39,818 nt of DNA from Shigella phage ESh2: sequence record ON528716. One strand, 5' to 3'. A model generated the notes under the pieces. The model ran no database searches, was not told where the DNA came from, and saw only the letters and a list, made by a program, of their open reading frames with translations. Every line of letters begins with the position of its first letter. Position 1 is the stretch's first letter. Both the position numbers and the translations under genes were made by a program. Below, in pieces: positions 19,129-37,116 of this stretch.

Positions 19129-19449
19129 ATGGGTAAGAAAGTCAAGAAGGTAGTTAAGAAAGTAACTAAGCCCGTTGAGAAAGCCGTAAAGAAAGTTACC
19201 AAGGAAGTGACTCGTCCTATTAAACAGGTTGCTGGTGCGCTGGCGGGTGGTGCTGGTGAAGCACAAGTAGTTGAAGTTCCACAACCAACAGCTGCTGCTA
19301 CTCCTGCTGCACAAATTGTTGACGTACCTGAGAAAGAGGTTTCCACTGATGACGAAGCACAGACCGAAAGCGGACGCAAGAAAGCTCGTTCTGAAGGTAA
19401 GAAGTCCTTGAGTGTAGCCCGTAGCTCCGGTGGGGGTATAAATATATGA
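19129..19449 (+). CDS. 7.3: gene 7.3 tail-associated protein (Lys-rich N-terminus)
   Basis: 106 aa; MGKKVKKVVKKVTKPVEKAVKKVTKE... ending SVARSSGGGINI; matches T7 gp7.3 with a 7-aa PTAAATP insertion. Confidence 0.9.
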   Translation: MGKKVKKVVKKVTKPVEKAVKKVTKEVTRPIKQVAGALAGGAGEAQVVEVPQPTAAATPAAQIVDVPEKEVSTDDEAQTESGRKKARSEGKKSLSVARSSGGGINI

Positions 19450-19847
19450 CAGATTGTATCCTTCATACTGGTTGCACGACTAAAGGAGGGTACGGTCTCG
19501 TTGGTTATAAAGGTAAGACACAGCTGGCTCACAGGGTATCATACATCAAATCAAAGGGTGAGATACCGACTGGTATGGTCATAATGCATACCTGTGACAA
19601 CCCTCTGTGTATCAACCCTGAACATCTTGTAGCTGGAACTCAGCGTGATAACCGTATGGACTGTGTAACTAAAGGTAGAGCGAACGTATCCAGAGGTGAA
19701 GAGCATTATTGTGCCAAGCTCACTGAGGCCATTGTGCGTGAGATTCGTGCATCAAATTTAACCAACACTGAGTTGTCAGAAGTGTATGGCATCCATAGGA
19801 GAACCATTAGTGACGCTCGATGTGGTAAGACATGGAGACATATTTAA
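19446..19847 (+). CDS. 7.7: HNH homing endonuclease at the gene 7.7 position
   Basis: 133 aa; TKGGYGLVGYKGKTQLAHRVSY...HTCDNPLCINPEHLVAGTQRDN HNH motif; C-terminal NTELSEVYGIHRRTISD HTH-like; stop overlaps gene 8 start by 1 nt. Confidence 0.85.
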   Translation: MTDCILHTGCTTKGGYGLVGYKGKTQLAHRVSYIKSKGEIPTGMVIMHTCDNPLCINPEHLVAGTQRDNRMDCVTKGRANVSRGEEHYCAKLTEAIVREIRASNLTNTELSEVYGIHRRTISDARCGKTWRHI

Positions 19848-33600: not shown

Positions 33601-34541
33601 GGGATGTTATTAGTGCCACCCTAACGGGTAAGGCTACCCGCTGGGAGAAAGAAGGATTCCTTCGTGGTGCCTCCGTAACTCCTGAGCAGATGGCTGGCAT
33701 CAAGTCTCTCATCAAGGAACATATGGTACGTGGTGAGGACGGGAAGTTTACCGTCAAGGACAAGCAAGCGTTCTCTATGGACCCACGGGCTATGGACTTA
33801 TGGCGACTGGCTGACAAGGTAGCTGATGAGGCAATTCTGCGTCCGCATAAGGTGTCCTTACAGGATTCCCATGCGTTCGGAGCATTAGGTAAGATGGTAA
33901 TGCAGTTTAAGTCTTTCACTATCAAGTCCCTTAACTCTAAGTTCCTGCGAACCTTCTATGATGGATACAAGAACAACCGAGCGATTGACGCTGCGCTGAG
34001 TATCATCACCTCTATGGGTCTCGCTGGTGGTTTCTATGCTATGGCTGCACACGTCAAAGCATACGCTCTGCCTAAGGAGAAACGTAAGGAGTACTTGGAG
34101 CGTGCACTGGACCCAACCATGATTGCCCACGCTGCGTTATCTCGTAGTTCTCACTTTGGTGCTCCTTTGGCTATGGTTGACCTAGTTGGCGGTGTTTTAG
34201 GGTTCGAGTCCTCCAAGATGGCTCGCTCTACGATTCTACCTAAGGACACCATGAAGGAACGTGACCCAAACAAACCGTACACCTCTATAGAGGTAATGGG
34301 TGCTATGGGTTCAAACATGCTGGAGCAGATGCCTTCTGCTGGCTTTGTGGCTAACGTAGGTGCTACCCTAATGAATGCTTCTGGTGTGGTCAACTCACCT
34401 AACAAAGCAACCGAGCAGGACTTCATGACTGGCTTAATGAACTCTACCAAAGAGTTAGTACCTAACGACCCTCTTACTCAACAGCTTGTGGTTAAGATTT
34501 ATGAGGCCAATGGTGTTAACTTGAAGGAGCGTCGGAAATAA
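30585..34541 (+). CDS. 16: internal virion protein D (ejectosome, gp16) with N-terminal lytic transglycosylase domain
   Basis: 1318 aa; MGVYDKSKPSEYDGLFQKAADANGVSYDLLRKVAWTESRF...; matches T7 gp16. Confidence 0.98.
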   Translation: MGVYDKSKPSEYDGLFQKAADANGVSYDLLRKVAWTESRFVPTAKSKTGPLGMMQLTKATAKALGLRVTDGPDDDRLNPELAINAAAKHLAGLVSKFDGDELKAALAYNQGEGRLGNPQLEAYSKGDFASISEEGRNYLRNLLDVAKSPMAGQLETFGGITPKGKGIPADIGLAGIGHSQKVTQELPESTSFDVKGIEQEAPAKPFAKDFWETHGETLDEYNSRSTFFGFKNAAEAELSNSVAGMAFRAGRLDNGFDVFKDTITPTRWNSHIWTPEELEKIRTEVKNPAYINVVTGGSPENLDDLIKLANENFEKDSRAAEAGLGAKLSAGVIGAGVDPLSYVPMVGVTGKGFKLINKALVVGAESAALNVASEGLRTSVAGGDADYAGAALGGFVFGAGMSAISDAIAAGLKRSKPEAEFDNEFIGPMMRMEARETARNANSADLSRMNTENMKFEGEYNGVPYEDLPTEKGAVVLHDGSILSASNPINPKTLKEFSEVDPEKAARGIKLAGFTEIGLKTLGSDDADIRRVAIDLVRSPTGMQSGASGKFGATASDIHERLHGTDQRTYNDLYKAMSDAMKDPEFSTGGAKMSREETRYTIYRRAALAIERPELQKALTPSERIVMDIIKRHFDTKRELMENPAIFGNTKAVSIFPESHHKGTYVPHVYDRHAKALMIQRYGAEGLQEGIARSWMNSYVSRPEVKARVDEMLKEVHGVKEVTPEMVEKYAMDKAYGISHSDQFTNSSIIEENIEGLVGIENNSFLEARNLFDSDLSITMPDGQQFSVNDLRDFDMFRIMPAYDRRINGDIAIMGSTGKTTKELKDEILALKVKAEGDGKKTGEVHALMDTVKILTGRARRNNDTVWETSLRSINDLGFFAKNAYMGAQNLTEIAGMIATGNVRALGHGIPILRDTLYKSKPVSAKELKELHASLFGKEVDQLIRPKRADIVQRLREATDTGPAVSNIVGTLKYTTQELAARSPWTKLLNGTTNYLLDAARQGMLGDVISATLTGKATRWEKEGFLRGASVTPEQMAGIKSLIKEHMVRGEDGKFTVKDKQAFSMDPRAMDLWRLADKVADEAILRPHKVSLQDSHAFGALGKMVMQFKSFTIKSLNSKFLRTFYDGYKNNRAIDAALSIITSMGLAGGFYAMAAHVKAYALPKEKRKEYLERALDPTMIAHAALSRSSHFGAPLAMVDLVGGVLGFESSKMARSTILPKDTMKERDPNKPYTSIEVMGAMGSNMLEQMPSAGFVANVGATLMNASGVVNSPNKATEQDFMTGLMNSTKELVPNDPLTQQLVVKIYEANGVNLKERRK

Positions 34542-34561
34542 TACGACTCACTATAGGGAGA
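34539..34561 (+). promoter_or_regulatory. T7 RNAP promoter phi17
   Basis: taatacgactcactatagggaga, exact consensus. Confidence 0.9.
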
Positions 34562-34613
34562 GGTGGAAGAATCTTCTCCCTGTAGTCTCTTAGATTTACT
34601 TTAAGGAGGTCAA

Positions 34614-36311
34614 ATGGCTAACGTAATTAAAACCGTTTTGACTTACCAGTTAGATGGCTCCAATCGTGATTTTAATATCCGGTTTGAGTATCTAGCCCGT
34701 AAGTTCGTAGTGGTAACTCTTATTGGGGTAGACCGTAAGGTCCTTACGATTAATACAGACTACCGTTTTGCTACTCGCACCACTATCTCATTGACCAAGG
34801 CTTGGGGACCAGCGGATGGCTACACTACCATCGAGTTACGTCGAGTAACCTCCACGACCGACCGATTGGTTGATTTTACGGACGGCTCAATCCTCCGCGC
34901 GTATGACCTTAACGTCGCTCAGATTCAAACGATGCACGTAGCGGAAGAGGCCCGTGACCTAACTGCCGATACTATCGGTGTCAACAACGATGGTCACTTG
35001 GATGCGCGTGGTCGTCGAATTGTGAACCTAGCGAACGCTGTGGATGACCGTGATGCTGTTCCGTTTGGTCAACTTAAGACCATGAACCAGAACTCATGGC
35101 AAGCTCGTAATGAAGCCTTACAGTTCCGCAATGAGGCTGAGACTTTCCGTAACCAAGCGGAGGGCTTTAAGAATGAGTCCAGCACGAACGCAACGAATAC
35201 CAATCAATGGCGCATTGAGGCTGAGGGGTTCCGTAATGAGGCTGAACAGTTCAAGAACACTGCGACACAACAGGCTACCGCTGCTGGGAACTCTGCTGCT
35301 GCTGCTCACCAATCGGAGATTAACGCCGAGAACTCAGCGACTGACTCTGCTAGCTCTGCTCATTTAGCAGAACAGCAAGCTGACCGTGCTGAGCGCGAAG
35401 CAGACAAGTTGGGTAACTGGAATGCTCTTGCTGGAGCTATTGACCATGTTGACGGTACTCGTGTGTTCTGGAAAGGCGAGCAACATTCTGATGGCAGACT
35501 ATATCTAACCACTAATGGATTCGATATTGGGCAGTATCAACAGTTCTTTGGTGGTGTTACTAACCGTTATTCAGTAATGGAGTGGGGTGATAAGTACGGC
35601 TGGCATTTGTACTCGGAGCGTCAAACCGAGGGTGGTACGACAACATTGAACCTTCGAGGACATATGACAGCAAATGGTAACGTCCGCGCTGCTGGTAACT
35701 CCTATACGAATAACCTCTTTGAGATGGACCGAGAGCAGCATTGGCCCGGTCGTGGTGCGTTTGCGAACCAGTATGCGGACAGGGCTGCACCATTTACCAA
35801 GACTGGTCGTTATCAGGCACCTAACGGGTACTCAGAGTATTATCCTATTGTTAAAGCCTATGTTGAAACACAAGGTTACGGGTATGGTACGGTTGCTACC
35901 TTCGGTATGCTAACCTCTGGAGGTGGTAGGTTTGCTAATGGGTGTGTCCACGTTATTGGGGATAATGGTGTTAATGGTCTCTGGCAGTTCGACCCTAACA
36001 CTGGTGGTTTCCTATCACGCGGAGATGTACATGTTGGAGATGGCGGTGTCGTCTACCAGAACGGTGACATATATGGTACGGTGTGGGGTGGTCGGCCTAT
36101 TTCACAGTGGTTAGGGGACCAGACCGTAAACCACATTGCTATGGGTGGTGTTAACTTTGCTCAGCTATGGAATAGTTACGGTATAGGAGATGGTGGTGGT
36201 AAGGTGATCACAGGAATCACCAACAGTAACGCTGATGCGCTAGTCGATGGATGCCAGTGGCGAGTAATGCAGTATGTCCGCAACAACGGACAGTGTTTCA
36301 ATATTTATTAA
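34614..36311 (+). CDS. 17: tail fibre protein; T7-like N-terminal and shaft region (aa 1 to about 326), divergent C-terminal receptor-binding region (aa about 327-565)
   Basis: 565 aa; MANVIKTVLTYQLDGSNRDFNIRFEYLARKF... matches T7 gp17 through ...GGVTNRYSVMEWGD, then diverges into a Gly-rich sequence unlike the T7 tip domain as recalled. Confidence 0.95.
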   Translation: MANVIKTVLTYQLDGSNRDFNIRFEYLARKFVVVTLIGVDRKVLTINTDYRFATRTTISLTKAWGPADGYTTIELRRVTSTTDRLVDFTDGSILRAYDLNVAQIQTMHVAEEARDLTADTIGVNNDGHLDARGRRIVNLANAVDDRDAVPFGQLKTMNQNSWQARNEALQFRNEAETFRNQAEGFKNESSTNATNTNQWRIEAEGFRNEAEQFKNTATQQATAAGNSAAAAHQSEINAENSATDSASSAHLAEQQADRAEREADKLGNWNALAGAIDHVDGTRVFWKGEQHSDGRLYLTTNGFDIGQYQQFFGGVTNRYSVMEWGDKYGWHLYSERQTEGGTTTLNLRGHMTANGNVRAAGNSYTNNLFEMDREQHWPGRGAFANQYADRAAPFTKTGRYQAPNGYSEYYPIVKAYVETQGYGYGTVATFGMLTSGGGRFANGCVHVIGDNGVNGLWQFDPNTGGFLSRGDVHVGDGGVVYQNGDIYGTVWGGRPISQWLGDQTVNHIAMGGVNFAQLWNSYGIGDGGGKVITGITNSNADALVDGCQWRVMQYVRNNGQCFNIY

Positions 36312-36326
36312 TAGGAGGAGTATGGT

Positions 36327-36932
36327 ATGGGAACTTTACGTCACTATAAGAACTTCGTAAACTATGTACCAGAGCGTACCAAAGATAATGCAGACCTTCT
36401 AGACCACGGCGTTGGCTTCTCAAAGGACGAGAATGGGAATGACTGGTATGAACTGCGTAATACATTCCGTGAGGATACATGGAAACTTGTCTATGCCAAA
36501 GACGGTTCTGTAATTCAGTGTGAACAGGATGTTCAGGAGTTAGCCGTTCAGGGTTCTGCTGGTGTGGTTGAACTTGAGGAAATCCCTGCTGAATACTCTC
36601 GGTATAATATGATGCAGTGGTGGTGGGACGGCGAGAAGCTCACTTGGTATCCAAGATACTTTGAGAACCAGAAGGCTCGTCTAATCTCTATGGCCTCCAA
36701 GAAGATTGAGCAGTATGCTGACTTTATGGCGCTTGGGGAGGAGGGGCTAGAAGGCATCTTAAATGCGTGGCGAGCCTATCGCCTTGCTGTATATAAAGTG
36801 GACCTAAGTGTTCTGCCTTTCTATGACTGGCCTGAGAAGCCTGAGGACTTATTAACAACAACACACAAGGAAAGACGTGTAGTCCACGGAAGGACTCTTA
36901 CAAGGAGGACACGTGCTGTCTTTAGATTTTAA
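36327..36932 (+). CDS. putative tail-fibre assembly chaperone (lambda Tfa-like)
   Basis: 201 aa; SD aggagg 8 nt upstream of ATG; C-terminal signature NAWRAYRLAVYKVDLSVLPFYDWPEKPED resembles the W..YR..L..VD.S..P..WP..P motif of Tfa-family proteins; no gene at this position in T7. Confidence 0.65.
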   Translation: MGTLRHYKNFVNYVPERTKDNADLLDHGVGFSKDENGNDWYELRNTFREDTWKLVYAKDGSVIQCEQDVQELAVQGSAGVVELEEIPAEYSRYNMMQWWWDGEKLTWYPRYFENQKARLISMASKKIEQYADFMALGEEGLEGILNAWRAYRLAVYKVDLSVLPFYDWPEKPEDLLTTTHKERRVVHGRTLTRRTRAVFRF

Positions 36933-37116
36933 CAACGAGGTAGTTAAGGCTGCTCCGATTGTAGGGACGGGTGTAGCCGATGGTGCTGCCAGACTCTTTT
37001 GGGGACTTTCATTAAACGAGTGGTTCTACGTTGCCGCTATCGCCTATACAGTGGTTCAGATTGGTGCCAAGGTAGTCGATAAGATGATTGACTGGAAGAA
37101 AGCCAATAAGGAGTGA
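36913..37116 (+). CDS. 17.5: holin (class II)
   Basis: 67 aa; MLSLDFNNEVVKAAPIVGTGVADGAARLFWGLSLNEWFYVAAIAYTVVQIGAKVVDKMIDWKKANKE matches T7 gp17.5. Confidence 0.95.
   Translation: MLSLDFNNEVVKAAPIVGTGVADGAARLFWGLSLNEWFYVAAIAYTVVQIGAKVVDKMIDWKKANKE

Follow-up and report, generated by a model that had tools for sequence, protein, structure and literature searches.

The tail fibre of Shigella phage ESh2 (record ON528716; the window, that is, the whole stretch of DNA analysed, comprises 39,818 nucleotides) is very probably that of a T7-group podophage (Teseptimavirus) with a mosaic architecture, in which a T7-type attachment domain and shaft are continued, from aa 255–330 onwards, by a distal cassette of a kind originally found in Kluyvera phage Kvp1 and also carried by other relatives of T7, together with a tail fibre assembly chaperone (Tfa). 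The replaced unit is the distal fibre plus its chaperone gene, and therefore the right-hand junction is located at about position 36864. A preliminary description of this DNA had placed a module replacement in the distal part of gp17, between 35592 and 36311, and such a replacement is indeed found there: similarity to T7 is lost abruptly, and the segment that follows is 74–89% identical to that of other phages. As this amino-acid identity extends over the full length of the replaced segment, chance is excluded as an explanation of the swap. However, the swapped region does not end at the gp17 stop codon (36311), as had been assumed, since the replaced unit also holds the Tfa gene (36327–36932) and the match to T7 resumes only at 36864.

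The gp17 open reading frame (34614–36311, plus strand) encodes 565 residues, with codon 327 starting at 35592, and the peptides that had previously been quoted from it are all present at the places given for them. Its locus is collinear with that of T7: gene 16 precedes it, the holin gene 17.5 follows, and the phi17 promoter lies in front of it. No second phage promoter, downstream of phi17, was found before the chaperone gene, so that gene 17 and the chaperone gene are probably co-transcribed. The N-terminal tail-attachment domain is recognised by Pfam PF03906 (Phage_T7_tail; aa 1–162, E 2.9e-73, 245 bits against a cutoff of 25.2), and its DNA (aa 1–150) is 87–92% identical by blastn to that of T7, ESh6, Yanou and Bas103. 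Over aa 1–330, 300 of the 330 residues (91%) are the same as in T7 gp17 (NC_001604), which bears out in broad terms the claim that gp17 follows T7 residue for residue up to aa 326, but the agreement is uneven, with 99% at aa 1–150, 87% at aa 151–268 and 81% at aa 269–326. At the DNA level, the match to T7 on this side covers 34500–35604 at 87% (blastn). The shaft (aa 151–268) is 87% identical to that of T7 and 86% to that of PGX1, and just 29–33% to those of Kvp1, SPLA4, LL2, Yanou and Bas103; the coiled-coil interval (aa 151–254) has no blastn match to ESh6 or Kvp1.

Table 1. Coordinates of the gp17 blocks and of the neighbouring features in the window
Feature	Position	Strand	Remarks
phi17, T7-type class III promoter	34539..34561	+	TAATACGACTCACTATAGGGAGA, upstream of gene 17; read from the sequence; position is that of the annotated T7 phi17
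gp17 aa 1–150, N-terminal tail-attachment domain	34614..35062	+	Common to all T7-group relatives examined
gp17 aa 151–254, coiled-coil shaft, T7/PGX1 type only	35063..35376	+	
gp17 aa 255–330, block conserved in T7-type and Kvp1-type fibres	35377..35604	+	T7 and ESh6/Kvp1/SPLA4/LL2 all align (blastn)
gp17 aa 331–480, Kvp1/ESh6/LL2-type middle domain	35605..36052	+	Beta-rich, GYGYGT...FG.LTSG...HVIGDNG motif; without T7 similarity
gp17 aa 480–565, connector helix (aa 496–503, WGG motif) and beta-sandwich distal tip	36053..36311	+	Mu S/S' type
aa 480–565 plus Tfa block	36053–36863		Also common to PGX1, Yanou and Bas103
Tail fibre assembly chaperone (Tfa), Mu gpU / lambda Tfa type	36327..36932	+	Homologous part 36327–36851, 175 codons
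Right-hand junction, conserved intergenic stretch	36864..36912	+	AAGGAAAGACGTGTAGTCCACGGA.GGACTC, short hairpin; five-way DNA alignment and blastn to T7
Gene 17.5, type II holin, T7 backbone, end of cassette	36913..37116	+	Pfam PF10746, E 4e-34; 85% nucleotide identity to T7

The block map, which is based on blastn and on binned amino-acid identities, makes the gp17 fibre, as judged from its sequence, a mosaic of at least five blocks, and at least four junctions occur in these fibres, at about aa 150, 255, 330 and 480. The block of aa 255–330 is the region of homology that joins the T7-like and the Kvp1-like parts. It is found at ≥80% coverage in 167 phage records, and as a linker it is 81% identical between the window and Kvp1. 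Its nucleotide identity, sub-block by sub-block, is 73, 62, 78 and 82% to T7 and 72, 77, 73 and 80% to Kvp1; the stretch at 35441–35500 is nearer to Kvp1 (77%) than to T7 (62%), which suggests that the crossover possibly took place well upstream of aa 326. At 35604/35605, nucleotide identity to T7 falls from 82% to about 35–40% within a few codons. Residue 326, which had been presented as the classic recombination point of such fibres, turns out to be one of at least four junctions and the end of the shared block. It marks the point where T7-type and Kvp1-type fibres diverge, not necessarily that of the crossover, and the true crossover may lie up to about 70 codons upstream of it. The connector helix is a corresponding boundary within T7-type fibres, and many records share just the last ~90 residues of T7 gp17.

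A search with aa 327–565, the segment singled out in the preliminary description, identifies a Kvp1-type cassette as its close relative, with full-length matches in Shigella phage ESh6 (Teseptimavirus, 89%), Kvp1 (Berlinvirus, 80%) and Salmonella phage SPLA4 (Berlinvirus, 74%), and others at 54–55% in E. coli phage LL2 (Teetrevirus), Shigella phage ESh10, Leclercia phages and Serratia phage Seera. The distant relatives of this fibre end are mostly fibres of P2/Mu-type myoviruses. An exhaustive search with the same 239-residue query returned 146 representative clusters at E≤1e-3, and most of the matches cover the middle domain; many of these clusters match the middle domain alone, several have a P2/Mu-type PF12571 N-terminus, and one is a fibre–Tfa fusion. 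The middle domain is 91–96% identical in ESh6, 78–86% in Kvp1 and about 50% in LL2, and it is absent from PGX1, Yanou and Bas103, which have only the last 83 residues and Tfa in common with the distal segment of this phage, so that tip and Tfa are inherited together even where the middle domain differs. In the four flanks inspected, those of Kvp1 (where it is named 17.2), SPLA4, LL2 and ESh6, the Tfa gene always follows the fibre gene. The same architecture, T7-type shaft included, is present in an unannotated Logan contig (L012), whose 565-residue fibre is 89% identical over its whole length, whose gene order matches throughout the interval of genes 16–19, and which encodes a normal Tfa of 175 residues; a sequence variant of this fibre, belonging to the same 90% cluster, is found on a contig of 39,177 nt. 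A scan of IMG/VR with peptide patterns gave Kvp1 itself as the sole match.

A search of 5,426 complete E. coli genomes yielded no nucleotide-level donor of the segment, and a recent origin from an E. coli prophage is therefore not supported. The base composition of the segment has no foreign signature. A high GC skew at 35800–36200 probably reflects the many glycine codons of this region. In a comparison of 900 nt from the 3' end of gp16, Yanou and PGX1 came out lower than expected, and this comparison was not used.

Past aa 330, a forced alignment to T7 yields only 10–22% identity. BLASTP of aa 327–565 against T7 aa 301–553 detects a single motif of 33 residues (aa 473–505, GDIYGTVWGG, against T7 aa 433–464), with 45% identity and a pairwise E of 3e-4. 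The alignment of the family profile to T7 gp17 by hhalign is longer, pairing aa 473–561 with T7 aa 433–504 over 72 columns (probability 94.9%). It ends at T7 aa 504, and T7 aa 505–553, the receptor-contact half of the tip, have no counterpart in gp17, nor does sequence similarity extend across T7 aa 371–553 with the outer tip loops (the pyramid plus tip of 4A0T). The claim that the C-terminal part does not resemble the T7 tip stands for these last T7 residues, but the region cannot be called unrelated, given its remote homology to T7 upstream of them. By phmmer, aa 504–561 match the tip of Mu S/S' (E 1.2e-5), and a profile search reaches Mu S/S' at E 1e-9 and also T7, at E 7e-4 to 8e-4; tip identity to Mu is about 18–30%. 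The AlphaFold2 monomer model, computed with a 75-sequence alignment, has a mean pLDDT of 84, with values >90 from aa 376 onward, and consists of a beta-rich domain, a helix at aa 496–503 and a small beta-sandwich at aa 505–565. When this model was used as a Foldseek query, the best match was Mu 5YVQ_A (E 2.7e-4), followed by T7 4A0U/4A0T (E about 2e-3). The C-terminal domain resembles the Mu S/S' type both in sequence and in structure, and the Mu fibre is a better match than that of T7 by every measure. The tips of gp17 and T7 belong to one broad class, of which gp17 represents a shorter, Mu-type branch.

The Tfa gene starts 15 nt past the gp17 stop codon, with an AGGAGG ribosome-binding site before its ATG. 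Its product is recognised by Pfam PF02413 (Caudo_TAP; aa 45–173, 37.9 bits against a cutoff of 22.1), by PHROG 136 'tail fiber assembly protein' (E 6e-38) and by comparison with Mu U (PDB 5YVQ_B; E 2.4e-11), to which it aligns at full length, over residues 5–173, ending ...DWPEKPE; NCBIfam has no model for either gp17 or Tfa. It displays the two-domain layout and the C-terminal ...W..YR..L..VD....WP..PE motif, which is invariant among eight relatives, and it shares 94–97% of its residues with the Tfa proteins of PGX1, ESh6, Yanou, Bas103 and LL2, and 82% with gp17.2 of Kvp1. The cluster to which it belongs contains 138 sequences at ≥90% identity, and most of its listed members are encoded on contigs of about 37–40 kb. 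The usual stop codon (36852–36854) has been lost through a 1-nt insertion, an extra T at 36852/36853, and the reading frame continues after ...DWPEKPEDL for 26 mostly basic residues, overlapping the start of the holin gene. The resulting length of 201 residues is unique among the listed members of the cluster, the others having 145–176. Such a 26-residue basic tail on the conserved C-terminal domain could impair Tfa, or it could be a sequencing error. In T7, the intergenic stretch that begins at 36864 is located directly after the gp17 stop codon.

Upon these homologies, block boundaries, gene order and predicted fold, all of them results of the present analysis, a model can be set by analogy with Mu, whose Tfa crystal structure is said to have been reported by North et al. 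in 2019. The cassette combines a beta-rich middle domain that is found mainly in fibres of P2/Mu-type myoviruses, a small Mu S-like tip preceded by a connector helix, and, directly downstream, a Mu gpU-like Tfa, and phi17 would drive transcription of both the fibre gene and the Tfa gene. The variable N-terminal domain of Tfa would bind nascent gp17 at its C-terminal tip, and the helical, conserved domain at the C-terminus of Tfa would align the three chains, the trimer folding tip-first, that is, backwards, as has been shown for Mu. On the same analogy, gp17 would depend on the chaperone, both proteins would form a 3:3 complex, and the mature fibre may keep Tfa attached. The modular mechanism of Mu Tfa has been summarised (PMC9608196). 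The variable tip loops, possibly with the middle domain, would then attach to a glycan of the cell surface (LPS core or O-antigen), perhaps other than that of T7. A surface glycan is a reasonable guess for the putative receptor, because LPS serves both Mu and T7, and the O-antigen serves Bas103. It is plausible that this putative receptor differs from that of T7, and the receptor class, again by analogy, may be the same, since Mu-type tips bind LPS too.

It could be argued that no swap has occurred, and that the distal domain of T7 has diverged in place by ordinary mutation, keeping the same fold and contact loops. The remote homology between aa 473–561 and T7, the rank of T7 gp17 371–553 as second-best structural match, and the succession of beta domain, helix and tip in the model, which is that of T7, would be in line with this view, but it is scarcely credible in the face of the collapse of nucleotide identity at 35604/35605, the identity of 74–89% between the segment and fibres from phages of other genera, and the length of the non-T7 interval, which is 1,259 nt here against 680 nt in T7 and includes an extra gene. 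It also leaves unexplained the missing counterpart of T7 tip residues 505–553, which reportedly bear most of the host-range loops of T7, and the better match of the Mu fibre. Nor is it at all probable that the junction arose during assembly, as a chimera of two T7-like phages grown in the same culture, and belongs to no real genome. T7-like phages of one sewage sample share long identical stretches where assemblers can switch, and the sibling record, ESh6, is UNVERIFIED and broken inside gene 17; against this, the reading frame is intact through all the gp17 junctions, and the Logan contig, which comes from another sample, joins a T7-type shaft to a Kvp1-type distal part at 89% identity, its variant being found on yet another contig. 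Moreover, the sequence diverges by 8–25% from every candidate parent on both sides of each junction, so that no two known parents could yield the chimera.

A different question is which part of the cassette confers specificity, the cassette itself being real. It is possible, if rather unlikely, that specificity resides mainly in the middle domain (aa 331–480), and that tip and Tfa constitute chiefly a conserved folding nucleus. Tip and Tfa are kept across at least seven host genera (the hosts are E. coli, Shigella, Cedecea, Kluyvera, Salmonella, Leclercia and Serratia), a span on account of which the tip may not determine specificity by itself, and the middle domain is exchanged, being of the Kvp1 type here and unrelated in PGX1, Yanou and Bas103. 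Tfa also retains 89–92% nucleotide identity even to LL2, a phage of another genus, but the tip, at 65–76%, evolves faster. Within the tip, conserved strands alternate with variable loops, and the changes cluster in two loops flanked by invariant strands, as expected of receptor-contact loops. Both Mu and T7 bind their receptors with the distal tip. Regarding the chaperone, the read-through tail might inactivate Tfa, in which case either gp17 would fold unaided or the genome that was sequenced would itself be defective. The lost stop codon, the added basic residues that run over the holin start, and a length not seen in the other listed members of the cluster all point in this direction, but such damage is quite improbable: the 175 homologous codons are all intact (175/175) and remain 94–97% identical to those of the five relatives from PGX1 to LL2, single-base indels beside TTA/TAA commonly arise as errors of sequencing or assembly, and C-terminal tags are often tolerated.

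The preferred reading, a T7-type fibre carrying a Kvp1-type distal cassette with Tfa, confirms that distal parts are swapped among T7-group fibres at a small number of fixed junctions, and shows that one class of tip travels with a chaperone gene. Therefore, grafting this receptor-binding region onto T7 for host-range engineering must move 35605–36851 as one unit, and not the end of gene 17 alone. The swap is real but ordinary, as the cassette has already been annotated in Kvp1, LL2, SPLA4 and Yanou, and that of the BASEL phage Bas103 has been treated in the literature; its practical value is modest, and it adds an example and no new principle. A broader proposal, which is at present distinctly unlikely to be right, is that the T7-type (chaperone-independent) and the Mu-type (Tfa-dependent) distal modules form two lineages within a single tip superfamily, which podovirus fibres can exchange at two conserved splice points, the aa 255–330 block and the G.I.G..WGG connector helix, and that the extra ~49 C-terminal residues of the T7 tip fulfil in cis the role that Tfa has in trans. 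If it were true, this phage and its relatives would provide a natural matched pair for what makes a tip need a chaperone.

Among the known systems, gp17 and gp17.2 of Kvp1 (NC_011534) share with this phage the distal fibre, 80% identical over 239 residues (tblastn, 100% coverage, E 9e-113), followed by Tfa and then by the holin, whereas Kvp1 has a Berlinvirus backbone, a shaft that is just 33% identical over aa 151–268, and a Tfa with a normal stop codon. The paper describing the Kvp1 genome noted that genes 17–17.2 differ from those of phage Berlin (Lingohr et al. 2008; PMC2579914). Among annotated phages, ESh6 (ON528719) comes nearest to this one in the swapped region (89%), with a Tfa that is 97% identical and a Teseptimavirus backbone at about 92% nucleotide identity, but its shaft has no DNA match to this phage, and its UNVERIFIED record is split inside gene 17. 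Escherichia phage EmilieLinder (Bas103), Cedecea phage Yanou and Escherichia phage PGX1 have in common with it the tip (the last 83 residues, about 68–75%), Tfa (95–97%) and gene order, and differ in their unrelated middle domain; Yanou and Bas103 also have another shaft, and fibres of 598 residues. The fibre of Bas103 has been described as a Mu-like fibre–Tfa complex, in a phage that depends on the O16 O-antigen (PMC11990801). The C-terminal pyramid and tip of T7 gp17 (PDB 4A0T/4A0U) show the same order of elements, namely a beta domain, a short helix with the G.I.G..WGG..L motif, and a beta-sandwich tip, but T7 lacks a chaperone gene, its tip is about 49 residues longer, and upstream of the helix there is no detectable sequence similarity. 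In Mu, the fibre is carried on the baseplate by a PF12571-type N-terminus, and its tip and chaperone are encoded in the invertible G segment. The ESh2 fibre differs from the S/S' and U/U' system of this myovirus (PDB 5YVQ, 8JU3) in that the N-terminus of gp17 is of the T7 type.

The gene of the tail fibre assembly chaperone (Tfa), located downstream of gp17, has lost its stop codon in the window (36846-36932). The window reads GAC TTA TTA ACA..., whereas the T7-group phages ESh6, PGX1 and Yanou, together with a Logan contig of the same fibre architecture (L012), have GA(C/T) TTA TAA, so that the difference amounts to one additional T at 36852/36853. The ORF is lengthened by 26 residues, mostly basic, and in this extended form it crosses the conserved intergenic hairpin and the ribosome-binding site of the holin gene, to terminate at 36932, within the holin gene itself, which starts at 36913. 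Among the members listed of its 138-member cluster, the window chaperone is the sole sequence of 201 aa. This loss of the stop codon could be either a sequencing error or a true variant.

A fibre-like protein of 643 aa (P0007), matched by the gp17 distal region in the search of representative protein clusters, harbors the same middle domain as the window gp17 and carries a fused Caudo_TAP domain, the Pfam family of Tfa, at its C-terminus (aa 512-635). This protein is either a fibre–chaperone fusion or a product of gene-calling read-through, and its joined Caudo_TAP domain parallels the lost chaperone stop codon in the window.

In every relative aligned, the position of the short hairpin that precedes the holin gene is also that of the right-hand boundary of the cassette formed by the non-T7 distal half of gp17 and the Tfa gene. 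The form of this hairpin in T7 is AGTCCA-CGGA-TGGACT.

Hairpin and HNH-type ORFs in the window
Feature	Position	Sequence or motif	Location
Short conserved hairpin	36881-36896	AGTCC-ACGGAA-GGACT	Intergenic, immediately upstream of holin
HNH-type ORF, 138 aa	30200-30616	HLCDVPSCCNPEHLRIGTQSDN	Interval from gene 15 to gene 16
Second HNH-type ORF, 152 aa	10583-11041	HLCHNRKCFNPAHLEVGTQYDN	Inserted between gene 3 endonuclease and gene 3.5 amidase

The window record is permuted with respect to T7 (stretches 1-712 and 542-1467). The former stretch matches the right end of T7 (39238-39937), and its portion 542-712 also matches the left end (first 171 nt of T7); therefore, the terminal repeat is internal to the window and not at its ends.

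No T7 match was obtained for 1468-2196 (~730 nt, around genes 0.3/0.4) or for 19446-19824 (~380 nt, around gene 7.7), and alignment gaps at the places where T7 has genes 3.8 and 5.3 indicate that both genes are absent from the window. The 138-aa HNH-type ORF, whose 3' end overlaps the start of gene 16 (30585), looks like an inserted homing endonuclease; in T7, a gap of only ~20 nt separates genes 15 and 16. Likewise, genes 3 and 3.5 follow each other without a spacer in T7, whereas in the window they are separated by the 152-aa ORF.
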